The position numbers and the translations under genes were made by a program. Of a DNA stretch of 64,000 bases, positions 3 to 31,328 are shown in pieces. The DNA is from a virus, in the IMG/VR virus record IMGVR_UViG_3300037502_001683, positions 6,252 to 70,251 of that record. The stretch is one strand, 5' to 3'. The notes under the pieces were generated by a model. It had not been told where the DNA came from. It saw nothing but the letters and a program-made list of their open reading frames with translations, and ran no database searches. The stretch's first letter is position 1, and every line of letters starts with the position of its first letter.

Positions 3-3000
3 CCGACAGTTCCCGTCACTCCGCCCGTAGAACCCACTCCCGAAGGCGCAGTAGCCCCTGTAGAGCCAGTTGTTGAGCCAGCAGTAGCAGAGTCGCCAGT
101 CGTTGAAACAAAGGCCGAGAATCCCGTTGTAGAGACAGAACAGAAGTCGCAAGAGCAAACCAATACAGTCAAGGTGTTTCGGGGCGTGGCCGAGGCTGGC
201 AATATCCCAGATGGTGGTGCGTTCTTTACCGACTCTGAAAAGGATGCTTCGGCGTATGCCCAGCTTGCGGCACTGCGAAAAGCTGTGGATGAGAACGAGC
301 AACTTAGCGAAATCGTTGGCGAGATCATGTCGGAGGAAGGCGCGGAAAGCATCACCGACTTGTCCATAAGCACAGTCAAAAACATCATTGAAGGCAACAA
401 GATTGAAGTGGGAAATATATCCGAGGGCACAGTCCTTCGCGGCAACATCAACCTTGGAAACACTCTCAACCTTGAATCCTTCGGGTCTGAAGTCGGCAAC
501 TTGCCCGAAACATGGAATGAAATGAATGAACTAGGCTTGGTTCCCGAAACTTGGGAAAGCCTAGACGAGGATGTTCAAGCCGAACTTCAAGACAAATACC
601 GCAACAAAGCTTTCTATTCTCTGCTTGAGGGTGAGGTGAATCTCAACGAACAATTCAACAAAGGCATAGACACTATTGTCTTCACCGACCAAAACACCGA
701 AGGCAAAGGAACCCACCGAACCTACCTCACCAAAGCAGCAGAGCAGTTCACGCAAGAAGCCGCCCCCGCAGTGACTCCTCCCGCCGAGGTGGCTCCCGAA
801 GTAACCCCGACCCCCGAAGCCCCGAATCTTGAACCTCTACGCCGAGTAGCAAGAGCAGAACAAGCCCCAGAAGATGTTCCTTCTTTGGTGGAGGCGGGGT
901 TGGTCGAGGTGTATAAAGATCAACCCGTCATTACGGAGGCGGGGTTGGCCGCGCTGCCCGAAGCAGAACGCCCAAGGCTGACTCCGCAAGCCCGAAAGAT
1001 CCAAATCGACACAGGATCAAACGAAGTAGTAGCCGAAGCCATCTCCAAGAATCTTCGTATCGGGGTCGATCAGGTAGGGCCTAATGTGCGTATGCCCGCA
1101 GGCTGGACACTGGTAGAGGATATCTATGTGCCGCCCGCACCGCAGGAAGTGGCTCCTGAAGCTATTACTCCAACGGTTGAACCAATTACTCCCGAAAAAC
1201 AAGTCATTCCAGAACAACAAGAGCAAGTTGCTCCAGTTGTGAGGGTTGAGCAAGAACAGGTAAACCAAGGAAAGCCCGATGTTGCCAAAATCATCAATCA
1301 ATTCACGGTGCTTGAAAGAGCCGCCGTTGCTGGTAAGTTGCTGGAAGAAGGATATATCGATGGAAGAACAGCAGACAAATTTGTTAAAGAGGCAACCAGT
1401 GATAAAACTGGAGGGTTCTCAATGGCGCAAATCCGAGATGCCCAAGCATCCGCCGACGAAAAATTCAATCAGCAAATCGCAGCGGCAAGAACTTCTCAAC
1501 CAGTTGCGGGAGAAGTATCGCCAGCGGCAGTCGATCTCGCGGCAGAAGATGCAACAAGATCCACAAAAGAAAGAACTCGTCCAGCTACCGCTTTAAGACC
1601 AAAAACCATTCTTGGTAAGACCGCTCGCGAAGCACTCTCATATCTTTCTAGCCTTAATCTTATTGAGTCAAGAGACTTGGACGCAGAAAGCGGTATCGCA
1701 AGATGGAGACAAGATCCCAATATTCCCAAACCATTTTATGCCCAAATTCAGGATGCAGCGGCAATCTTGTCCAAATTGCCTCTTAGAATTCTTGATGCTG
1801 ACAAGATTATTTCTAATGCCGACAGAGGATACAAGGGCGGGGCCAAGCGATTTGGTGATGGAGATATTGGAATTCCATTAACAGAAACAGCTAGAGTCCA
1901 AACAGCTACTGGATCGTGGGTAAGAAGGTCGGTTCCGAAACCACTGAATGTTGCAACGCTTGTTCACGAAGTTGGGCACACACTCACAGCGGATGCTATC
2001 GACAAATATATCAGTTCAAAAAAACCAAAGGGTGATGATTATTTAAAATTGCTTGATAGTGCTTTAAAAAACAAGACAACGCCGCAACCAATTAAGGATC
2101 TAATTGCTCTTTACAAAACAACAATTAGCCAACTTGGACTTGAGCAGGAATATTTTGGCAAAAAGGGGTTGGCTGGCGGAAGGGCTAGAGATTCACAAAG
2201 AAAAGCTTATGATAAAAAGATTGTAAACAATCTTACTGGGAACCCATTTACTTGGAGCCAGTATTATGGCTTGGCAAATATTGATGAATTTGTGGCGCAA
2301 ACTTGGAGCAGTCAATCTTTTCAGGATCTTCTCAAACAAATAAAAGCCCCAGATCAACAGAGCTTGTGGACAAAATTCACTAAAATAATTCGGGATCTTT
2401 TTGGATTCCCATCTGATTCCATGGCAAGCGCCGTGATTGATGTTTCTATGCAAATTGCAGAACTTGAAACACCGATTGGCGCAAGGAAAGGAGTCGCATT
2501 CTCTGGTGTTACAATTGCTGATAGAATTGCTGGAAGAGGCGAAGAACCAGCGCCCCCGACTAGAAATATATGGCAAGCCCCAGAGCAAGAAATCACCTCG
2601 CAAGAAACATCTATTAACGAAAAAAAGATTCCAGCCGTCTTTAATCAAGTCAAAGAATGGAAAGAAGGAACAGTCAATGCCGATATTGGCGGTGGAAGAT
2701 TTGACAATGTTACTGATTGGTTGCGGGATCGTGGCGTTGAAAATCTGATTATTGACTGGTTTAATAGAGATCGGGCCTTTAATGAGAAAAATATCAATCG
2801 TGTTCGCGGTGGGCGGGCCGATACGGCAACCGTTTCTAACGTATTAAATGTCATTCAAGAGCCTGAAGCTAGGGATCTTGTAATTAGCCAAGCCGCAGAT
2901 GCAATTAAGCCAGACGGGACTGCATATTTTTATATCTATGAAGGCAAAGGCGATGGTGTTGGTCGCCAGACAACCAAGGGATGGCAGGAAAATCGCAAGA

Positions 3001-6000
3001 CCCAAACATACATAGACGAAATTTCTCAGCATTTTGAAAACGTCGAACGCCGCAACCAAATGATTGTGGCTACTGGCCCGATAAAAGAAATAGGATTTGC
3101 CGAAGCAGAACCAGAAATGCCATCCGAAGGAATCCCCACCTTCTCCGAGGGAAGCCCCGAAGCATCTACTCTTTCCAATATGAAGGCGTCTATGGCCAAG
3201 GTGGATGCGGCGTCCGAGGCCAAGCCAAACCCCGAAAACAAACCCACCTACAAGATCAGCGAGATAGCCTCTGTCTGGATGGATCAAGGGGGAGATGCCC
3301 GCCAACTCCAAGACCTAATCACCGAGAACACCAATCTCACGCCAGCCAACGCCAAGCGGGTAGCCAATGCCATTGCCAAACAATACGATATCCAGCAGTC
3401 TATTGCTTCGGCGTTTATCGAAACCCAGACTGGCCTTTCGGTGGAAGCTTTGCCAGAAGGCGTGACTCTTCCCAAGGAGGTTGATCCTGATCGTCCGCGC
3501 CCAGTGATGCAACGCCTATTTGATGTGTTTATGGGGGTGCGTGTTAAGCCTGTTAAAATCACAGTCAACGAGAAGACCGCGCTTAATCAGCAGATCCGCC
3601 TCAAGGCAGCGGCTACTCGCGAGGCCAAGAAAGCCCAGCAAGAAACGGCCAATGAAGTAGTGGAGATCATCAAAGCTATGGAGCTTCGCGGCCCAGTGCG
3701 CCCGAAACAAGCCCAAGCCCTTGCCAAACGCGCAGCTAAAGTTATCTGGACTAGCGAGAAATCCATCGAATCTTTCACCGACTATGCCGCAAAAGTTGTA
3801 GAGAATACAAATTACGATGCTGATCTTCGGGCGGCAAGGGATGCACAAAAACGCGCCAAGGCTTTGTCTACCCAGAAAAAGGTTGCACTGTCCCCGCAGC
3901 GTGAGGTTCTGAGCGATATCAGCAAGATCGCCGTCAATCGCATTGAAGATCCAAGGATGTTTGCAGAGATGGTGAACTACTATCTGAGAGGATTTAAAAA
4001 AGCTATATCTCCAGATTATGTAGTCGTTCCAGATGCAGAAATTCAGGGCTACCTTTCCAGCGTTAAAGACGAAGAGATTCAAAGCCAGCGCGAACTTGAC
4101 CGCGCCGTCAACCTCCGCCTTGCCGAGAAATACGGGGTCGATCCCGAAGAAGTAAATGAGGTTTTGGCGGCGTTTGACGTTATCAAGGAAATCGAAGCCA
4201 GCGAGAATCGCGAGGCCATCGACAATCTTCTGACCGAGAAAGCCATCGAAACCCGCGATGGACTCAGGGCTTATGATTCAATTCAGCTTCGACAAGACCA
4301 GCGCAAGGTTGTTGATGCCATGGCAAAAGTTGATCCAGCGGCCTTGGATGCCGAGGAGCGCCAACGTTTTATTCGTATTGCCAACAATGTGATCTTCAAC
4401 AACCAAACCAATGGCGCGGAATACTTTATGTCTGTTGCCAATGGCCAACAGAATGCCAGAAAATCGGCACAGGATAGCGAGATGATCGCCCGCAACAAAG
4501 CTTGGGTGAATCTTATTAAGACATTCGGGTCAACCAAGCTTGAAAAGGTTACCAGAAGTTGGGCGCTGGAATTGCAGTCTGTCTCAGACACATTCCGAAA
4601 TGCTTTTGGCAAAAATTCGATGGCCAAAATATATGACCTTATGGGCATGCTTGACCTCAACTCAAGCTTTACCCAAGCCAACAATACGGTTGACCAGATT
4701 CAGGAAGAGATGGCTGAGTTCCACAACAAGCTTGAGAAAGACTATGGCGCGGCGTCCCGCAACCAAGACGGCATCCTTGCCGAGGGTGTGGTTGGATTCC
4801 TGATCCAGCGTGTTCCAAAGAAGGGTGAAGCGGATTCAATTGCCCAACGCCGAGACCTGATTAGGCAGGATATTGCCAACCGCCGCGCCTCAAATGAAGG
4901 TGACCGTGTTGCCATGGCGGATCGCATTGAAGCAATTCTAAACCAGATTGACGGGGCATCTACGCAAGAGATCTTGGGCAAACTGAAACAGACTTATCCA
5001 GCTAACCACGAATCCTTGGTTTGGTATAAAGATACACTACTTCCTAAATACAAAGACTTCCTCAAAAACTTTGACGAGAACTTCAACGATCAGGCCAACA
5101 ACTACGATAATCCTGATTATCTTCCGATTGCCTTCACTTCGGCTGGGCCTTCGCTTGCTATCACCAAGGAAGAAGAACAGGTGTTCTATGATCAAGTTTC
5201 TCTAACGCCGAAACAATCCGCCAACACCATCAAGCGTGTTGATTACACAAAGATTCCAAAAGATCGCACAACCGATAAGCCCAAGGAGATTAGCTACAAC
5301 CTCCGCCGCAACGCATTCAACAGTCTTTCAGATCAGATTAACAAAGCTTATACCTCTGGAGCGTGGCAACAGATTGCCTCGTTTATGAAGACACCTGAAT
5401 CTACTCAGGTTTTTGGTGGAGATGCCAATAAGGATTTCTTTATTGAACGACTCAATCGTTTGCGTCTTTCCAGAATGCGGCGTGGGGCCATGAGTCGTGG
5501 AGCTTTTGAGAAAGCCGCCGATGCTATTGGCGTGATCTCGCGCAAACTTGGCACTGGTATTGCCCTTGGTGGTGTCTATCAGTGGATCAAGCAGCCCCCC
5601 GACCAGCTTATCACGGCTTGGGGAAGTGGTGCGCGTGGCGAAGTGTTGGCCCGAAACATTGCTCCATCTAACCAGAAAGCCGCCCGTAACCTCCTTAATA
5701 AATTCTCAATTGGACGGCGTGGTGATGCTTCCGCTGGGTACAAATATATCAATCAGATGGAAGGCCATCAAAATAGACTTGAGCGTTACTTCTCTGAAAG
5801 TAAGTGGGAACAGGCCAAGGAACAGGCTGGTAAGATTGCCGATGTCTGGATGATTGGACTCAAGAAATCTGATTTCATTGCTGCATCCGCAGCATGGATG
5901 ACTTACTACGAGACAGAACTTAACAAGAAAAATATCCAAATCGAAGATTGGAGCAAGGAAGCAGATCTCATTGATGGAGATCGGGACAGGCGGGAGGCAG

Positions 6001-6857
6001 CAGCCTATGCCGAGCAGATGACCGATATCTATCAGGGATCTTCCGATCCTACCCAGATGGCGGTGTTTGCCCAAAGCGGAAAGTCTGGTGCCGAGAATCT
6101 TCTCAAGGCTATGTTTGTTCCGTTTAACTCCTTTGCCGTGCAGCAACGCATGAGGCTTTATTCGGACATGCGGGATGTTTTGAATGGCGAGAAAACAGGG
6201 CGGGGCGGTCTTGCTGGCACTATTGGTGGCCTTATCCTTTTCCATGCTACCAAGCGGTATGTCCTTCCTGTTATTTCTGGATCGGCTATTGGCGTTCTAT
6301 ACAGCCTCATGGGTGTGGATGTTGAGGAACCAGACGAAGATAAACAGAAAGAACAGGCCAGCAAGAACTTCCGTCAGTTCCTTGCCGATGCCAGTTCCAA
6401 CCTTCTTGTTGGCGGAACTCCGCAAGTTATTGAATCCCAAATGATTAAGGCTTTTAACTACGCCGCATATCTCACCGCAATGCAACTTGAGGATGAATCT
6501 GTAATGGGCGATGACGGAGAGCTTATCTCGTTTGATAAATACCAAAAAGAACGCTCACCACTTTACCGCTATCAAACTTATGGCGGGGCAATGAGTCTTG
6601 GCATGTTGGAAATTGGATTTGACCAAGCTAAACAGGTGGCACTGAATACCAAGATGCTGGCTTCACCAGAAGAGATGGAGAATTTTACTCCTGAAGAAAA
6701 ACGGCTTCTTTATTTCTCCGCACTATCCGATTGGTTGTATCTCATGCGCCTAAATGACACCGACTTTGCGCGTATGGTTCAAAAGGCCCGCCGTGACATG
6801 ATCAAAGCCGCCGAAGAGCGCGAGAAAGAACTGGCGCGTATCCGAGCAGGACGCTAG
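3..6857 (+). CDS. Giant polyvalent protein, probably an internal virion/ejection protein; 5' end lies outside the window. Contains ART-like, zincin metallopeptidase and class I SAM-methyltransferase domains and a long helical C-terminus
   Basis: Frame is open from position 3, upstream of the ORF-track start at 174. VFRG...GAFFTD..A.AYA...IDTIVF resembles polyvalent-protein ADP-ribosyltransferases. HEVGH (1965-1979) with a downstream DEFVAQ is a zincin motif. DIGGGRFD...SNVLNVI...AIKPDG (from 2682) is a Rossmann methyltransferase. Pro/Glu-rich linkers separate the domains. Confidence 0.8.
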   Translation, partial: PTVPVTPPVEPTPEGAVAPVEPVVEPAVAESPVVETKAENPVVETEQKSQEQTNTVKVFRGVAEAGNIPDGGAFFTDSEKDASAYAQLAALRKAVDENEQLSEIVGEIMSEEGAESITDLSISTVKNIIEGNKIEVGNISEGTVLRGNINLGNTLNLESFGSEVGNLPETWNEMNELGLVPETWESLDEDVQAELQDKYRNKAFYSLLEGEVNLNEQFNKGIDTIVFTDQNTEGKGTHRTYLTKAAEQFTQEAAPAVTPPAEVAPEVTPTPEAPNLEPLRRVARAEQAPEDVPSLVEAGLVEVYKDQPVITEAGLAALPEAERPRLTPQARKIQIDTGSNEVVAEAISKNLRIGVDQVGPNVRMPAGWTLVEDIYVPPAPQEVAPEAITPTVEPITPEKQVIPEQQEQVAPVVRVEQEQVNQGKPDVAKIINQFTVLERAAVAGKLLEEGYIDGRTADKFVKEATSDKTGGFSMAQIRDAQASADEKFNQQIAAARTSQPVAGEVSPAAVDLAAEDATRSTKERTRPATALRPKTILGKTAREALSYLSSLNLIESRDLDAESGIARWRQDPNIPKPFYAQIQDAAAILSKLPLRILDADKIISNADRGYKGGAKRFGDGDIGIPLTETARVQTATGSWVRRSVPKPLNVATLVHEVGHTLTADAIDKYISSKKPKGDDYLKLLDSALKNKTTPQPIKDLIALYKTTISQLGLEQEYFGKKGLAGGRARDSQRKAYDKKIVNNLTGNPFTWSQYYGLANIDEFVAQTWSSQSFQDLLKQIKAPDQQSLWTKFTKIIRDLFGFPSDSMASAVIDVSMQIAELETPIGARKGVAFSGVTIADRIAGRGEEPAPPTRNIWQAPEQEITSQETSINEKKIPAVFNQVKEWKEGTVNADIGGGRFDNVTDWLRDRGVENLIIDWFNRDRAFNEKNINRVRGGRADTATVSNVLNVIQEPEARDLVISQAADAIKPDGTAYFYIYEGKGDGVGRQTTKGWQENRKTQTYIDEISQHFENVERRNQMIVATGPIKEIGFAEAEPEMPSEGIPTFSEGSPEASTLSNMKASMAKVDAASEAKPNPENKPTYKISEIASVWMDQGGDARQLQDLITENTNLTPANAKRVANAIAKQYDIQQSIASAFIETQTGLSVEALPEGVTLPKEVDPDRPRPVMQRLFDVFMGVRVKPVKITVNEKTALNQQIRLKAAATREAKKAQQETANEVVEIIKAMELRGPVRPKQAQALAKRAAKVIWTSEKSIESFTDYAAKVVENTNYDADLRAARDAQKRAKALSTQKKVALSPQREVLSDISKIAVNRIEDPRMFAEMVNYYLRGFKKAISPDYVVVPDAEIQGYLSSVKDEEIQSQRELDRAVNLRLAEKYGVDPEEVNEVLAAFDVIKEIEASENREAIDNLLTEKAIETRDGLRAYDSIQLRQDQRKVVDAMAKVDPAALDAEERQRFIRIANNVIFNNQTNGAEYFMSVANGQQNARKSAQDSEMIARNKAWVNLIKTFGSTKLEKVTRSWALELQSVSDTFRNAFGKNSMAKIYDLMGMLDLNSSFTQANNTVDQIQEEMAEFHNKLEKDYGAASRNQDGILAEGVVGFLIQRVPKKGEADSIAQRRDLIRQDIANRRASNEGDRVAMADRIEAILNQIDGASTQEILGKLKQTYPANHESLVWYKDTLLPKYKDFLKNFDENFNDQANNYDNPDYLPIAFTSAGPSLAITKEEEQVFYDQVSLTPKQSANTIKRVDYTKIPKDRTTDKPKEISYNLRRNAFNSLSDQINKAYTSGAWQQIASFMKTPESTQVFGGDANKDFFIERLNRLRLSRMRRGAMSRGAFEKAADAIGVISRKLGTGIALGGVYQWIKQPPDQLITAWGSGARGEVLARNIAPSNQKAARNLLNKFSIGRRGDASAGYKYINQMEGHQNRLERYFSESKWEQAKEQAGKIADVWMIGLKKSDFIAASAAWMTYYETELNKKNIQIEDWSKEADLIDGDRDRREAAAYAEQMTDIYQGSSDPTQMAVFAQSGKSGAENLLKAMFVPFNSFAVQQRMRLYSDMRDVLNGEKTGRGGLAGTIGGLILFHATKRYVLPVISGSAIGVLYSLMGVDVEEPDEDKQKEQASKNFRQFLADASSNLLVGGTPQVIESQMIKAFNYAAYLTAMQLEDESVMGDDGELISFDKYQKERSPLYRYQTYGGAMSLGMLEIGFDQAKQVALNTKMLASPEEMENFTPEEKRLLYFSALSDWLYLMRLNDTDFARMVQKARRDMIKAAEEREKELARIRAGR

Positions 6858-25976: not shown

Positions 25977-26337
25977 GGAACAACTCTATAATCGTCTCTT
26001 CTTTTTGACGAGTTTTTTCTTGTTTCGTTTCGATAGTGACATCTTCCGCACGGTCATCTGGAATTGCTCCAGCATAGCGGAGGCAGTCAATGAAGTATTT
26101 GAAAACGAGATTGTCGGGGTCAATAAGTCGCTTCCTTCTTGCCGTAAGGCGGATATGAATGCGTCCTGTATTTTCTTTTTTGCTGCCTGCCTTCGCCAGT
26201 GGTTCATTGCGAATAGAGCGTTTAGGCTTGGGGTTACGGCTGGAACCCTTATTGTTAAGAAAGGCTCGTTGGATTGTATCGATTCGCTCATAGACTCCTT
26301 TGCTTACTTCCACATAGCCTGCTGGGATTTCTTTCAT
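25960..26337 (-). CDS. rusA: RusA-like Holliday junction resolvase, catalytic (C-terminal) half
   Basis: RLIDPDNL.FK.FID.L..AG.IPDD motif; this frame lacks the PSxN N-terminal motif. Confidence 0.8.
   Translation of the reverse strand: MKEIPAGYVEVSKGVYERIDTIQRAFLNNKGSSRNPKPKRSIRNEPLAKAGSKKENTGRIHIRLTARRKRLIDPDNLVFKYFIDCLRYAGAIPDDRAEDVTIETKQEKTRQKEETIIELFRENGA
25986..26291 (-). CDS. Nested same-strand ORF encoding a RusA-like N-terminal half
   Basis: IRVP..TPSLN.L..MNHWRR..AKKK; AAAGGAG upstream of its ATG; in-phase A_AAA_AAG at 26175-26181. Confidence 0.65.
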   Translation of the reverse strand: MSESIQSNEPFLTIRVPAVTPSLNALFAMNHWRRQAAKKKIQDAFISALRQEGSDLLTPTISFSNTSLTASAMLEQFQMTVRKMSLSKRNKKKLVKKKRRL

Positions 26338-28087
26338 GTTTCGGGGTTTGAAGATGGTTTAAGCACCAATATCACAGCAAGCGCAAACCACCAAGGACTC
26401 CAGTCCTGCCACCCCACTAGATAGGCTGTCCCGCCGAAAATAAAGATATTCCAGACTAAGCAGAATATTGCGTTCATGGATTCGGGGTTTCACACATTGT
26501 CCAAGTCTTTGGTTCATATTTATATGGATATGCAGGATATGTGAAGTCGGGTGGCGGCGAGTCCATAAGATCTTTCATTAGTGTTTTCGGGGGTTCGGTG
26601 CATTCGCGGTGGTAGGCTCCAGCATTGCCCCACACGATATCTTTAAGGACTGGTCGCCCGCAATACTTGCAGATGAGATCTGTTCCGTTTCCGTTATATG
26701 TTCCGCCAGTGTTCATTTATTATGAATGATTGGCTTGACGTTATCGTTGTGTTCGGCCCTTGCGATGTATTTTTGTGCTTCTGCAAAAGTATTGAAATCG
26801 GCAGGATTATACATACAGCCAGCATCTACCCAGAATAATCCGAACATCTTCCATTGGACTTGAAACCTTGATCCGTCATATAGCGGATATTCTTTAATTC
26901 GGTATTTCATTGCTCAAGCAATACTTCCTCTTTAAGTCTTTCGGCTTCGGCGTCTGGGGCCACACACATCATTAGTGCTTTTCGGGCTTTCTCTAGTTGT
27001 TTCTCTTTTTGTTCCAGCATGATGTGGAGGATGTTCCTGTCGGCAAACTCCGCAACATTGCTATACACTCGACCTACAGTCATATTCCGTGTCCTCTAAG
27101 CCAATAATCAAACGCCTCCCACACACGCTTGTTTGGGTTTTGGCACTTTCTTTCTGTTCCATCTTTCTTGAGCCACAGAGGCCCGAAACAGCGATCAAAG
27201 TCAAAGCGCCATGTTCGTCCATTCACGGTTATCTCATTATCGGGCATATCGCAGACCGACACGATGGCGTTGTTAAATCGTAGGCATTTCATTTTCTTGA
27301 TCAATTGGAAAATTCAAGAATTTTTCGAATTTCCCTTAAACGATTATTAACGGCTAGATCGGCCTCGTTTTTAGCATATTCTTCAATGGCGTCACTCATC
27401 CATTTCGGAAGTTGAATGCGCTCATCAATTTCATTTTCGTAATTCTTTTCAGATTTAGAATATTCAAATACTCCATACTGATATCTAGGATATATTGCTT
27501 TTTTGGGCAGTTTAATTGTCATTTATTTTTCTCCTTTAGTCGATAAAACTCCTCAAGTGCGATGTGCGCCCTGCCTCCAATGGTCATTGTCCCAGAAAGC
27601 TCATAGAACAATGCTTCGGCCAGCTTATCCGCACATTCGCGCCATTGGCCACGCTCGGATTTTTCATTGTATGTCGAATTACACAAATCGCATGCATAGT
27701 GATCGGTAGACCATGGTTGGTGGCCGCGAACGAATTTGACCCTTCCCTCCTTGCAGTGATCACATTCTGGGAAGTTTTTCAAACACCAGTCGCAATGTGG
27801 TAAATCAGCGCGACCCTCCTTTTTACACCATGGGCAGATTGTTCTATCGCTCATTTGATGGCCTCCTTCAGCCGCTTAAACTTGTCCAGTGCTGCGAGGC
27901 ACTTTTTGCAGTATCCGTTATCGCAACATCTGCCTCGCGGCAGTGCTGCCATCATCTCCGCGCACTCGCGCCATTCGTTGCGCTCGCGTTCTAGATTTTG
28001 TGCAAAATCTTCTGGGACAACGTGACAACAATATGTCAGCCCTCTTGCGTCAAAAGACTCTGAATCTGTTTCAGGTGTATCGCTCAT
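26334..28087 (-). other. Cluster of small hypothetical genes, several with CxxC zinc ribbons or DTPETD/LERER/WRECA modules
   Basis: Chain of ATGA-overlapping ORFs (26474-26716, 26713-26910, 27301-27522, 27519-27854, 27851-28087). Confidence 0.7.
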
Positions 28088-28395
28088 TTAATGATTCCCT
28101 CTTGGCGGGCCATTGCTTCGATCTGGCTCACATACTCGCGGGTGCAGTTGAATTGCTCGGCAATAGCAGCGAAGTTCATTTCGGGGTTGGCCATGAGATA
28201 GCCAAGGATTTTGAAAGCCCGCCCCCCATTGGACATACGCCTCTTGGTAGTCTTCTTGCGCTTGGCCCGAATTCCATTCTTACGCAATGCCTGCGCCATG
28301 GCTCCGTATTTGACTCCATGCTTTTCGGCAAGTTCGCCAATTGTAATTTCGGGGTTTTGTTCGATTTCTTGTGGAAGTAAGGATGCTTTGATCAT
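28084..28395 (-). CDS. Double helix-turn-helix DNA-binding protein
   Basis: TIGELAEKHGVKYGAMAQAL and NFAAIAEQFNCTREYVSQI (sigma region 4-like). Confidence 0.75.
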   Translation of the reverse strand: MIKASLLPQEIEQNPEITIGELAEKHGVKYGAMAQALRKNGIRAKRKKTTKRRMSNGGRAFKILGYLMANPEMNFAAIAEQFNCTREYVSQIEAMARQEGIIK

Positions 28396-28405
28396 ATGAT
28401 TATGT

Positions 28406-28434
28406 ATTGACATTTAACCTTATCTGGCGTTCAA
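28406..28434 (-). promoter_or_regulatory. TGAAC-N17-GTC class promoter
   Basis: TTGAAC-17 nt-GTCAAT, 10 nt before the ATG at 28395. Confidence 0.65.
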
Positions 28435-28460
28435 TCTTCGTCAACTAAGTTCTTTTAAAT

Positions 28461-28534
28461 CGCGGGAACAAGCCTTGGTAGGCTAACCAGTTTCATAAGC
28501 TGGGGCAATGTGAGTTCAATTCTCACTCCCGCTA
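28461..28534 (+). tRNA. Atypical tRNA with CAT anticodon (Met/fMet-like or Ile2)
   Basis: Acceptor CGCGGGA/TCCCGCT, D arm AGCC-TTGGTA-GGCT, anticodon arm CCAGT-TTCATAA-GCTGG, T arm GTGAG-TTCAATT-CTCAC, discriminator A, no encoded CCA. Confidence 0.85.
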
Positions 28535-28561
28535 CCTTTGCAAAGGTTCCACCTCAATGAC

Positions 28562-28704
28562 AAAAGCCCATGGGGCTTTCTCTGTCGAGTAGTTGGGGTG
28601 GTCGAAGTTTAGCGCGGCCCACGCGAAACCCGCCCCCGAAGATCCCAGACTTCTACTCTGACAAGTTCGACGGGAATAAGGCGGTGTGGCCGCGCTTTTC
28701 TTTT
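28562..28704 (+). ncRNA. Candidate structured ncRNA downstream of the tRNA
   Basis: At least seven complementary segment pairs (see findings); 3' stem followed by TTTTCTTTT. Strand is not certain. Confidence 0.55.
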
Positions 28705-29244
28705 TCATCGGCGTCTTTTGCTGGCGCGGATCTTCTTTCCAGCCAACGCTTGCTGGTAGGCTTCTTCGGTGATGACTCGGCCTCGGAGGCGGAAGAGCCA
28801 GTTAGGTTGTTTGGTGAAGTTCCAGCTTAATCCCAAAGCCTTGAGGGTCGCCGCTGTCATTCCGCCTTTGATTTTGAGGCTTTCGACAATCTTGGAATCA
28901 ATAACTCTGGTGTTGGTAAGTTTGTCTCGCCTGTTAGGCTCTACTGGATCGACTACAGGTTCGGGCTTGGGTCGGGACAACTTGCGTTGAAACTTGCGGG
29001 ATTCCTCGCGTTCCACGGCATGGAAGTTCTTGTGACACTTTTTACAGAGACAAATCAAGTCATCAAGGTGGTTTAGCTCGTCTCCCTTATGCTCATAGGT
29101 TCTGTGGTGGGCCTGTAAATCTAGTGGACTGTTGCAAAGTTGGCAGCGAAATCCCGCCCGCTTCTTGACTGCCCGACTCACTTCTCGCCAATGAGGTGTT
29201 TGGAGATAGGCTTGGTATTGAGATTGAGTATTGGTTATCATCAC
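28705..29244 (-). CDS. HNH endonuclease with an extra basic C-terminal domain
   Basis: Y..YL.T.HW, CQLC, AHHRTY, LICLCKKCH..FH. Confidence 0.88.
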   Translation of the reverse strand: MMITNTQSQYQAYLQTPHWREVSRAVKKRAGFRCQLCNSPLDLQAHHRTYEHKGDELNHLDDLICLCKKCHKNFHAVEREESRKFQRKLSRPKPEPVVDPVEPNRRDKLTNTRVIDSKIVESLKIKGGMTAATLKALGLSWNFTKQPNWLFRLRGRVITEEAYQQALAGKKIRASKRRR

Positions 29245-29307
29245 GGAACCTGTGCGCTGCGCGGCTTATGGGTTCTGTCAGTAACTGGATTATTTCGGGA
29301 TTTCATC

Positions 29308-29820
29308 CTACCACAATCCCCGAATTTCCCTCTGACACTCTTCCTCATCCCCATAACCCGATACAATATCATCCTCTATATATTGATTATTCTGTATATT
29401 GTTATTTATGGGTATTGATAGTTCTTGTGTGGTGCAGGTTTCCTGTAGCACCACAGAACATGTAGCACCAGCTTTTGGCTTCCAGTTGGTTTTGTTGCTT
29501 CGCTGGTCTAGCGGGATCGCGTTGCTAAAAAATTCCCAGATGTTACAAAACCCTCCATCATGGCGTTCAACGCTGAATCGCGCATAACCGCTGGACTCAA
29601 TTTCCTTCATGTAGGATTTAACTTTGGTTCTTCCATCTTTATTGGAAGAGTTCACAAGATATTCACGATTAATGAACCAATCGTCTGAATTGGAAAAAAT
29701 TGTTAGTAAAAGTCCCTTGGCCCCCATAGAAAGATTGGGGTTCTTGGATATCTCGTTAGAGACAATCGTGTAGTGTTCATTTTTCTTTACTCTGTAATAA
29801 ATGGTCTTGTTTCTTGTCAT
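29308..29820 (-). CDS. Replication initiator/replisome organiser-like winged-helix protein
   Basis: YTIVSN.I.K...LS..AKGLL...S..DDW, KEIE..GY, NNNIQNN linker. Confidence 0.75.
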   Translation of the reverse strand: MTRNKTIYYRVKKNEHYTIVSNEISKNPNLSMGAKGLLLTIFSNSDDWFINREYLVNSSNKDGRTKVKSYMKEIESSGYARFSVERHDGGFCNIWEFFSNAIPLDQRSNKTNWKPKAGATCSVVLQETCTTQELSIPINNNIQNNQYIEDDIVSGYGDEEECQREIRGLW

Positions 29821-30161
29821 GGCTGGCTTCTCCAATTGGTTCGGTTGCTGCGGTTTGGTTCGGGTAATGGTGTGTCGAAAAATTTGAGGCTAGTCTTAAT
29901 CCTGCCATTTGAAGATATTTCGTAGTGGGCATATCCTGCTGCTTCAAGCTCTCTGATATATTTCTTGATCGGAAACTGGCGGTCTTTCGGGCTTGCCGCG
30001 CCAAAGTGTTCGCGATTTAGCTCAACTGATAAATCTTTATCATTCTGGATAGACAAGGCATAAGTCAAAAGCCCCTTGGCCCCGAAGCTAAGATTACTGT
30101 CTTTAAATGCCTCGCTGGACATTTCCAGATATCCTTCTTTAGTCATTGGAATAATATTCAT
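29817..30161 (-). CDS. Paralogue of the initiator winged-helix domain
   Basis: LSFGAKGLL, IRELEAAGYA, FF...P...RSNRTNW align with the next gene. Confidence 0.75.
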   Translation of the reverse strand: MNIIPMTKEGYLEMSSEAFKDSNLSFGAKGLLTYALSIQNDKDLSVELNREHFGAASPKDRQFPIKKYIRELEAAGYAHYEISSNGRIKTSLKFFDTPLPEPNRSNRTNWRSQP

Positions 30162-30169
30162 GCGGTCTA

Positions 30170-30299
30170 ATAGACACCACTTCTTGCTCTGTGTTCAAAT
30201 TATTCGATGGACGCAAGATTGTGAGATCCATGGGATTTAAGCACAGTGTTCCACGATTGTCAAAAAAAGTTTGAACATCCGCCAAACCGTGTGGTCTAT
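30170..30299. promoter_or_regulatory. Divergent pair of TGAAC-N17-GTC promoters
   Basis: Minus 30170-30198 and plus 30271-30299 both read TTTGAACA-N16-GTCTATTA. Confidence 0.8.
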
Positions 30300-30305
30300 T
30301 ACTCT

Positions 30306-30690
30306 ATGAACAACTTTGCGGGATGCATTGAGGGTGCCACTGTGAATACGGGGGCAAGCGACCTGAAATCCCGCAATTCCGAACGTTTCGATGCGCGTCT
30401 TCATGGCGCGGGAATAAACGATGAGGAAAATGCTGGGCGGTATAGCAATACGGATGAGCGCCACATCGGGAGACAGAGGTTCGGCCTTAGTCTGCGAACG
30501 GTGGGTGCCACATCGTGGTCGGGAGATAGTAAGGTTTATTGGCCCGTGTCGGCCCCTTATAATACGGCACCCCACTGCTATCGCAACCATGGAAACCCGT
30601 ATATCGGAAAGGGGATGCATACCCGTTCCCAGCAAATCTTTTTTGGAGGCGGGGAGACCCGCATGCAAATGCGAAGCTTTGCCAATCTGG
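30306..30690 (+). ncRNA. Candidate large (~380 nt) structured ncRNA
   Basis: Own promoter; many stems, two GNRA-capped hairpins and long-range pairings (see findings). Confidence 0.6.
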
Positions 30691-30730
30691 GGAGGTTGAC
30701 AAAGTGCGCCACCCCGCCTCCAATCTCTTT

Positions 30731-31084
30731 ATGAACAGACAAGACGCCATACAACTACAAATAGATGACATCATGGATACATTTGACTTCCAATGCGTTA
30801 TGAAGGTGTTGGAAGCCTATAAGTCTATGGAGCGGGGTTACCCCAAAGATTGGTTCTTCAATGATGAACCATTTGAACCCGCGATTCGAGCAGCAGCCCG
30901 TGATTGCATGAAAGCGGCGGTCAAGCACGGCTATGCTGGTCATAGCTATTTTGAGGCCCGCTTTACCGAAGGAGAAGACCATGACGGCCCGTGGGTTAAA
31001 ATTGATTTTGGCTTCGGGGATCATACCCACAATGATGGAACATCTTATGAAAAAACTACTACTACTACCCCTATTACTGAGTAA
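30731..31084 (+). CDS. Hypothetical protein (IDDIMDTFDF motif)
   Basis: ATG at 30731 downstream of a TTGACA box; protein-like composition. Confidence 0.75.
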   Translation: MNRQDAIQLQIDDIMDTFDFQCVMKVLEAYKSMERGYPKDWFFNDEPFEPAIRAAARDCMKAAVKHGYAGHSYFEARFTEGEDHDGPWVKIDFGFGDHTHNDGTSYEKTTTTTPITE

Positions 31085-31328
31085 CACCCTCGCCCAAGAT
31101 GGATCGTTTAATGGGACGGTCTATGATTTGAATTCGGGGCGGATACAGATCATTAGCGGATCGGTTGATGTGAAACCCAAAGAATCCACTTATCTGTCTA
31201 CGCTTCGTAGAATCAATGCGGAATTGGCCGAATCAAACGCCCGTTTGAGTGCGGAGATTGCCGCCAACAACCAACTTTACGAACTGCGCGAGCAAACACG
31301 ACTCCTTCGCAAGATTGCCAATCAATGA
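31047..31328 (+). CDS. Small secreted protein with coiled coil
   Basis: MKKLLLLPLLLSNTLA|QD signal-peptide-like N-terminus. Confidence 0.65.
   Translation: MKKLLLLPLLLSNTLAQDGSFNGTVYDLNSGRIQIISGSVDVKPKESTYLSTLRRINAELAESNARLSAEIAANNQLYELREQTRLLRKIANQ

Follow-up and report, generated by a model that had tools for sequence, protein, structure and literature searches.

Introduction

A short non-coding transcription unit such as a tRNA gene can end at an intrinsic terminator, a GC-rich stem, usually closed by a loop of 3-8 nucleotides (nt), with a U-tract directly behind it. Here we describe what is probably an unusual form of this arrangement in 64,000 nt of phage DNA (hereafter, the window), comprising bases 6252-70251 of the 70,251-bp, metagenome-derived IMG/VR virus record IMGVR_UViG_3300037502_001683, in which a GC-rich intergenic stretch separates a tRNA-Met gene from a convergent gene for an HNH endonuclease. 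An earlier annotation of positions 28562-28704 (the original prediction) saw in this stretch a two-state or pseudoknotted RNA in which nearly every base has a partner. The comparison with related loci makes it reasonably likely that positions 28537-28706 form the 3’ trailer of an accessory + strand tRNA-Met cassette together with its transcription stop, and not a switch or a pseudoknot. As in described terminators, a GC-rich stem at the end of a short non-coding unit runs directly into a U-tract, and seven relatives carry it in canonical form, with a 10-bp stem and a UUCG tetraloop; the window differs in its 86-nt stem-loop, which has a loosely paired apex of 68 nt in place of the usual short loop.

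Three other described systems resemble parts of this locus. IscB proteins, of ~400-500 amino acids (aa), combine a split RuvC domain with an HNH domain and are accompanied by a HEARO (omega) guide RNA. The window shares with them a structured non-coding stretch adjoining an HNH-domain gene; it differs in that the protein has 179 aa and an HNH motif only, in that the RNA would lie 3’ of the gene, and in that the stretch matches no Rfam family and is missing beside 11 homologous HNH genes. The 3’ external transcribed spacer (3’ETS) of leuZ is, in the part of PMC8383071 that treats it, an RNA lying between the last tRNA and the operon terminator, with the terminator hairpin included, and possibly released in tRNA processing; the RNA considered here has the same position, and differs in being phage-encoded and optional among close relatives. 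Homing endonucleases carry flanking DNA along, an example being SegB in the tRNA region of phage T4, and the sections of PMC2330249 and PMC2790892 that describe T4 segB and mobE depict small nuclease genes adjoining a phage tRNA gene, with a patchy presence and with nuclease and flanks highly identical between diverged phages, all as at the present locus. SegB is a GIY-YIG enzyme, whereas the nuclease here is of the HNH type, and our subject is an RNA-like spacer and not the nuclease. The extended terminator, the trailer RNA and the homing role of the nuclease are all predictions from sequence here.

A conserved terminator with a lineage-specific loop

The element that would end the transcript, terminator T1 (28611..28706, +), has a 9-bp base stem, eight pairs of which are G-C, formed by AGCGCGGCC (28611-28619) and GGCCGCGCT (28688-28696), and directly 3’ of it on the + strand the U-tract TTTCTTTTTC (28697-28706), which overlaps the stop codon of the HNH gene on the opposite strand. 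Exact-word scans of IMG/VR and of JGI metagenomes returned eight homologues of the module that follows the tRNA (L013, L014, L015, L017, L018, L019, L020 and L035, with L018 cut by a contig end); L016, L021 and L022 were discarded as chance word matches. In seven of the eight, T1 takes the form GCGCGGUUUC-UUCG-GGAGCCGCGC, a 10-bp stem followed by a T-run, and the closing pair is A-U in the window and L020, G·U in L013, L015 and L019, and G-C in L014, L017 and L018. A GC-rich stem with a U-tract on the transcribed strand is found in the window and in these seven homologues; the compact hairpin with a ~3-8-nt loop is found in the seven short forms and not in the window, where the apical part spans 68 nt.

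A terminator scanner called a small local hairpin with the T-run (28681-28693), and it called no - strand terminator at this stretch. T1 does not read as bidirectional either, since on the - strand its stem is followed by UAAACUUCG and no U-tract. The original prediction had named as its own refutation a simple bidirectional terminator of which only the terminal stem is conserved and whose loop pairings do not covary. This is close to what we observe, but T1 is one-directional and a second structure, hairpin 1, is also conserved.

What sets the window apart is the apical extension of T1 (28618..28689, +), in which the 12 nt of the relatives (TTTCTTCGGGAG) are replaced by 72 nt, a net gain of 60 nt. 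The extension sits between GCGCGG and CCGCGC, leaves the base stem and T-run unchanged from the relatives, and occurs in none of the 8 homologous modules. The 70-kb genome contains it once; in IMG/VR, a 17-mer taken from it gave 9 matches, none of which extended beyond the search word (19 letters in L031), and the 5’ arm of the rod, searched as a 20-mer, gave 0. Among the four sequencing runs compared, in which contigs only were used, a ~96% identical contig of run X3 carries the extension free of gaps, and it is therefore not a one-off assembly artefact. None of the runs listed is recorded as RNA, although three with small shares (X4, X19 and X20) are guessed to be RNA.

The apical 68 nt fold no better than shuffled sequences (141/1000 as good), and for the whole 86-nt rod 1/1000 shuffles was as good. 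Hairpins with a long apex and a T-run recur on the + strand in this phage group, namely in L035 (a 56-nt hairpin followed by T8) and at L013:490-580 (z = -4.7), so that a terminator grown to this length is not exceptional here. Because the base stem and the local hairpin 28681-28693 remain beside the U-tract, the extension is probably a neutral, lineage-specific growth of the terminator loop. The feature would then be of an ordinary kind, the trailer of a tRNA with its intrinsic terminator, found in a phage group that is unannotated, and its expansion unusual but apparently meaningless. The idea that the extension arose by inverted duplication of hairpin 1 or of the short terminator was considered and rejected, the best local alignment being 10/11 to the reverse strand of the module (59/500 shuffles as good).

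The proposed alternative pairings are at chance level

The words from which a two-state RNA had been constructed are all in place: the hairpin AAAGCCC-ATG-GGGCTTT at 28563-28579; the rod arms AGCGCGGCC at 28611 and GGCCGCGCT at 28688; the inner rod words CCGCC (28630)/GGCGG (28680), TCCC (28643)/GGGA (28672) and ACTT (28649)/AAGT (28663); the loop words CTACTCTGACA (28653)/TGTCGAGTAG (28583), TTCGAC (28666)/GTCGAA (28601) and GGGGTGG (28595)/CCGCCCC (28630); and around them the T-run at 28697-28706, the tRNA-Met(CAT) at 28461-28536 (+) and the HNH open reading frame (ORF) at 28705-29244 (-). The helices drawn from these words fared unequally in the predicted fold. The base stem of the rod (pair probability P 0.53-1.00) and CCGCC/GGCGG (P 0.56-0.84) are recovered, and TCCC/GGGA and ACTT/AAGT (P 0.00-0.03) give way to other registers.

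The abundance of paired bases, offered as a special property of the stretch, is what shuffling produces: the paired fraction is 0.59, vs 0.61 in shuffles (373/500 as high), and the fold of 28562-28704 has an energy of -51.0 kcal/mol, vs -47.0 +/- 3.8 kcal/mol for dinucleotide shuffles (77/500 as good). The wider stretch 28537-28710 does carry a fold signal, on the + strand (z = -3.1, -66.2 kcal/mol) and on the - strand (z = -2.8, -65.1 kcal/mol), and this signal comes from the outer stem of hairpin 1 and the 9-bp base of the rod. The locus is in this respect a cautionary one, as a GC-rich intergenic stretch with a partner for almost every base folded no better than its shuffles.

A regulated switch, in which the rod loop pairs with 28583-28592 and 28601-28606, or in which GGGGTGG exchanges hairpin 1 for CCGCCCC, is on this evidence very improbable. 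Complementary words are indeed present, with lengths of 10 nt (one bulge), 6 nt and 7 nt (one G·U), pairing of the loop alone is marginal (56/1000 shuffles as good), the upstream partner TGTCGAGTAG lies in the single variable patch of hairpin 1, and the extension is gap-free in the X3 strain. However, every alternative partner named (CTACTCTGACA, TTCGAC, CCGCCCC) falls inside the extension, so that one partner of each pairing is missing in 8/8 homologues and the loop pairings, being unique to the window, can show neither conservation nor covariation. For the upstream segment and the whole extension, the duplex energy is at chance (-26.4 vs -22.8 +/- 3.3 kcal/mol in shuffles; 148/1000 as good), and by nested-fold and duplex energies no pairing of the loop to the outside goes beyond chance. 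When forced, the alternative pairings lie 14.1-15.5 kcal/mol above the best fold of -66.2 kcal/mol and have a pair probability of 0.00; the centroid structure is the best fold itself, and GGGGTGG is held in the conserved outer stem of hairpin 1 (P 0.97-1.00). In addition, the order of the two loop pairings is wrong for one coaxial helix, and Rfam returned for the window at E <= 10 nothing except the tRNA and three chance-level matches, and for six related loci at gathering score nothing except a canonical tRNA. We take the complementarities between the extension and the upstream segment to be coincidental; the most striking pairings of the stretch are confined to a lineage-specific 60-nt growth of an ordinary terminator loop.

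Hairpin 1 and the strand of the element

Hairpin 1 (28549..28601, +; pair probabilities 0.68-1.00), which the earlier annotation had recognised only in part, is common to all homologous loci that reach that far. Its outer 10-bp stem, CCACCUCAAU/GUUGGGGUGG (28549-28558/28592-28601), encloses the inner hairpin at 28563-28579 and a middle helix, GACA/TGTC, that is found in the window only (1/7 sequences). In an alignment of seven sequences (the window and six loci) the outer stem is paired in 98.6% of alignment cells: one pair has changed on both sides (C-G to U-A, in L035), three pairs have changed on one side only, and two U·G pairs are invariant. The three substitutions of L015 in this stem (C>U, C>U and A>G) preserve pairing on the + strand only, and L035 converts two of the positions changed in L015 into U-A. 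Read on the - strand, the outer stem would contain 2-4 A·C mismatches. The assignment of the element to the + strand is supported by these changes but weak, because the shuffle control on the seven sequences is not significant (160/500 as good) and the predicted best fold of L015 lacks the outer stem. The proposal of a non-coding RNA co-transcribed with the tRNA survives in outline as a predicted + strand RNA, downstream of the tRNA and closed by a terminator with a U-tract, to which both the conserved T1 and the G·U pairs formed on the + strand only point.

The same data bear on the idea that the stretch acts on the - strand or as DNA, as the 3’ untranslated region or terminator of the HNH mRNA, as a guide or partner RNA of the HNH protein, as the remnant of a homing site, or as an origin-related hairpin beside replication-initiator genes. 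The - strand fold is nearly as stable as that of the + strand (-65.1 vs -66.2 kcal/mol, z = -2.8). The inner stem of hairpin 1 has AAAA before it and UUUCUCU after it, which on the - strand gives the stem followed by UUUUGUCAUU; in loci with a short HNH gene this stem is placed 2 nt after the HNH stop. A GC skew minimum and a strand switch lie nearby, close to replication-initiator matches in PHROG. T1, moreover, accompanies the HNH cassette in 7/8 other module-bearing loci. Set against these points are the A·C mismatches of the outer stem, the missing U-tract of T1 and missing terminator call on the - strand, and the failure to find iterons or repeats. An association with the HNH gene itself, which the original prediction had raised as speculative, is true of the short terminator in most loci; however, the module is missing from 11 loci that have the HNH gene, and L035 has hairpin 1 and the tRNA without the HNH gene. 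The protein, too, is a plain single-domain nuclease of 179 aa and not of the RNA-guided IscB architecture; it had only HNH family matches, and no HEARO match was seen in Rfam at E <= 10. We therefore consider a - strand or DNA function distinctly unlikely.

The tRNA and the origin of the trailer

The single tRNA gene of the window, a tRNA-Met(CAT) of what we call type A (28461..28536, +; found by ARAGORN), is non-canonical, with a C1/U72 mismatch, and falls below the Rfam gathering threshold for a tRNA (RF00005), its best clan match being tRNA-Sec (30.5 bits vs 47). L014 and L017, with the same tRNA type, likewise had nothing in Rfam at gathering score. A canonical tRNA-Met (62.3 bits) occupies the same slot in L013 and L019 (L013:16-89). 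The two versions have identical acceptor stems and T arms and diverge in the D arm, the anticodon arm and the variable region; both have the C1/U72 mismatch, which we take to be reminiscent of initiator tRNAs. The type of the window is also present in L014, L017, L035 and L034, and it occurs without the module in the tRNA array of another phage (L034) and on a foreign contig of run X4.

The tRNA is an optional part of the cassette, being absent from L015, L020 and one contig of run X2. In L015 the tRNA-less junction joins TTCTTTAAA to GGTTCC at the 3-nt repeat AAA, and in L020 and the X2 contig it joins TTCT to TTTGCAAA at the 3-nt repeat TTT. Since the two junctions differ and each lies at a 3-nt repeat, we infer two independent deletions from a tRNA-bearing ancestor, from which it would follow that the hairpins began as the trailer of the tRNA.

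A candidate promoter and the proposed transcript

Between the tRNA and its left neighbour, a gene for a helix-turn-helix (HTH) protein, lies a divergent control region (28406..28446, both strands) that we regard as a candidate promoter. The + strand has TTGACA and TTCAAT separated by 17 nt, and the - strand TTGACG and TAAGGT separated by 16 nt; the outer TTGAC and GTCAA are inverted repeats of each other, TTGACA and its inverted copy (CGTCAA) lying ~29 nt apart with GTTCAAT between them. This pattern is conserved in L014, L015, L019 and L035 as well as in the window, and relatives that lack the module have it too; it holds in L015 and L035 despite only ~54% identity of the neighbouring gene. 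The region could serve as an operator for the adjacent HTH protein together with a divergent pair of promoters.

In the proposed mechanism, transcription would start in the conserved control region (28406-28446), run through the tRNA and then hairpin 1 (28549-28601), and end at T1, where the GC-rich stem gives way to UUUUCUUUUU. Host processing enzymes would cut the tRNA out of this precursor. The base stem of T1, with the small local hairpin beside the U-tract, would still be able to terminate despite the extension, and the stop would keep + strand transcription from going antisense into the convergent HNH gene. The cassette as a whole would occupy a mosaic hotspot beside the gene of a free-standing, homing-type HNH endonuclease.

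Several observations weigh against this account. The transcript, its start and its 3’ end are all deduced from the DNA. A consensus promoter scanner made no call at TTCAAT, a poor -10 element, because it lacks an A at position 2; the terminator scanner did not call the long rod, the loop of which exceeds 8 nt, and called the inner stem of hairpin 1 on neither strand. Covariation is thin, with one compensatory pair, and to this are added the shuffle control and the L015 fold given above. In the loci with a short HNH gene, T1 and half of hairpin 1 lie within the HNH reading frame, so that part of the conservation of hairpin 1 and T1 could reflect coding constraint or recent shared descent. Hairpin 1 and T1 are also almost unchanged where the tRNA is gone (L015 and L020), which is not required of a mere trailer and may mean that they have a function of their own or that the deletions are very recent. 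Finally, the extension is gap-free in the X3 strain and may be under purifying selection.

A trailer-derived small RNA as an alternative

The near-invariance of hairpin 1 and T1 even without the tRNA makes them a reasonable candidate for a trailer-derived phage small RNA. Such an RNA (~105 nt in the relatives, ~165 nt here) could come from the tRNA precursor or be made alone and act by base-pairing like the E. coli leuZ 3’ETS, and in phages with the short HNH gene it would be cis-antisense to the 3’ end of the convergent HNH mRNA. Among the alternatives to a plain trailer we rank this one first, though as unlikely overall. Identity between loci is 88-100% for the module, vs 52-91% for its left neighbour; the module persists with either tRNA type, without a tRNA and beside three different right-hand genes, and has the usual layout of small RNAs, a stem-loop and then a Rho-independent terminator. 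It pairs better on the + strand, it overlaps in antisense the last ~63 nt of the HNH frame in L019 and L014, and it has a precedent in 3’ETS-leuZ (Lalaouna 2015, as cited in the relevant part of PMC8383071).

Yet the adjacent short HNH gene is equally identical (91-100%), and recent block transfer therefore explains the identity of the module equally well. Furthermore, the module is missing from 11 related loci, among which is a complete genome, no Rfam family matches it, and the HNH gene of the window already stops at the U-tract, which leaves no antisense overlap with the coding region. The more specific version, in which hairpin 1 and T1 form a phage 3’ETS-type small RNA whose targets are host RNAs or the convergent HNH mRNA at its 3’ end, and the extra 60 nt add pairing surface, we judge rather unlikely; if true, it would describe a phage-borne, modular trailer-RNA regulator travelling with a mobile nuclease cassette.

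Mosaic distribution beside the HNH gene

The boundaries of the whole cassette (tRNA, hairpin 1 and T1; 28448..28706) were given by 11 IMG/VR loci retrieved with the HNH protein. Nothing like 28440-28720 is present in any of them (11/11), with the flanking genes kept, and 28448-28706 is therefore an insertion or deletion. In L004-L006 the promoter region of the HTH gene starts within 2 nt of the HNH stop; L002, L003 and L007 have an unrelated ~50-nt spacer in place of the cassette, and in L009-L012 the HNH gene is short and the module missing. The module has no copy anywhere in a complete relative of 72.8 kb or in four partial relatives, and it is single-copy in its own genome.

Among module-bearing loci, the tRNA, module and adjacent HNH gene occur together in the window, L013, L014, L017 and L019. 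L015 has the module and the HNH gene without the tRNA. L020 has the module without the tRNA, and between the module and its short HNH gene there is a 234-aa ORF (2300-3004, -) that has no PHROG match. L035 has the tRNA and hairpin 1 and neither T1 nor an HNH gene, the T1 position being taken by the different, 56-nt hairpin. As regards the co-occurrence that had been proposed as a check, module, HNH gene and tRNA are each found without the others. L013 and L019 are identical over the module, and L015 and L013 are 96-97% identical over the module and short HNH gene, vs ~52-56% in the neighbouring HTH gene, a pattern that looks like block transfer. We conclude from these comparisons that the tRNA, hairpin 1, T1 and the HNH gene appear to be gained and lost separately in a mosaic hotspot. 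A small, sharply bounded cassette that comes and goes between syntenic phages beside an HNH gene would be an example of mosaic exchange, with a probable homing endonuclease next to it.

The HNH gene of the window is of a long form (28705..29244, -; 179 aa), with the HNH core at residues ~7-83. It matches Pfam HNH with E = 0.0011, under the Pfam cut-off, and ten PHROG families described as HNH endonuclease (best E 4e-12); its C-terminal region of ~95 aa has no family match in Pfam or PHROG. The short forms have 96-100 aa and lack this C-terminal region. In loci with a short HNH gene, its frame extends in antisense across T1 to a stop codon within hairpin 1, so that gene and module share ~63 nt (ORFs listed for L019 and L014), and the other short-HNH loci carry the same sequence as L019 and L014 at the overlap.

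Past its TGA stop, the HNH frame of the window stays open for 31 codons across the whole rod (28704..28608, -), to a TAA at 28608-28610. It begins with KRKAR, like the tail of the short HNH proteins (RKRKARLPKKPRQ...), and relative to that tail the extra 60 nt of the rod are exactly 20 codons in this frame; the open frame and the codon multiple together have a chance of roughly 1 in 8. The post-stop frame probably records an in-frame recombination event involving the basic tails of the two HNH forms, long and short; readthrough of the HNH stop was also considered, and the open frame and the codon multiple were not taken as evidence for it. A 58-aa ORF (28708..28532, -) spans the stretch and overlaps the HNH stop at an ATGA; it matches nothing in Pfam or PHROG, its frame is shifted in L014 and L017 by a 1-nt indel, and it was set aside as unlikely to be a gene. 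An 86-aa ORF on the + strand (28570..28830) has its start in a hairpin loop and continues in antisense into the HNH gene.

A promoter-like site (TTGAC...TAGCCT) lies at L013:590-760, past the short HNH gene and a second long hairpin with its T-run; it is present also in L014, L017, L019 and L035, though not in the window. The site is followed by ~150 conserved nt that contain no convincing ORF, gave nothing in Rfam at gathering score and could be a non-coding RNA.

Genome context

The ends of the virus record are direct terminal repeats, and the phage genome is estimated to be complete. A scan of ten large ORFs detected no virion RNA polymerase signature, and N4-like hairpin promoters, an idea suggested by a 70-kb genome with terminal repeats, were accordingly dropped. 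A word scan of genome contigs gave a single match, in an Acidoferrum metagenome-assembled genome, that was judged to be due to chance and so offers no clue to the host, and blastn of 28400-29300 against the INPHARED phage records gave no match. A 2227-aa ORF (174-6857, +) and seven further ORFs of 380-850 aa have no Pfam match at E <= 0.001.

All plausible genes at ~6.8-30.7 kb are on the - strand, and the + strand tRNA cassette is placed inside this block of early and replication genes of the 70-kb phage. Its conserved left neighbour encodes the winged-helix/HTH DNA-binding protein (28084..28413, -; Pfam HTH_24, E = 1.8e-8), whose gene is 75-85% identical at the DNA level between the window and L014, L017, L019 and L020, and ~55% identical in L015. 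Beyond the HNH gene, the genes at 29835..29308 and 30161..29817 match replication-initiator PHROGs, and DnaG- and DnaB-like genes are present elsewhere in the window. Cumulative GC skew has its minimum (-0.23) at 26-30 kb, and at ~30.7-31.3 kb the AT skew changes sign and gene orientation switches from - to +, adjoining genes that match replication-initiator and DnaD-like PHROGs; the region ~26000-31300 is a possible replication origin or divergent early region.

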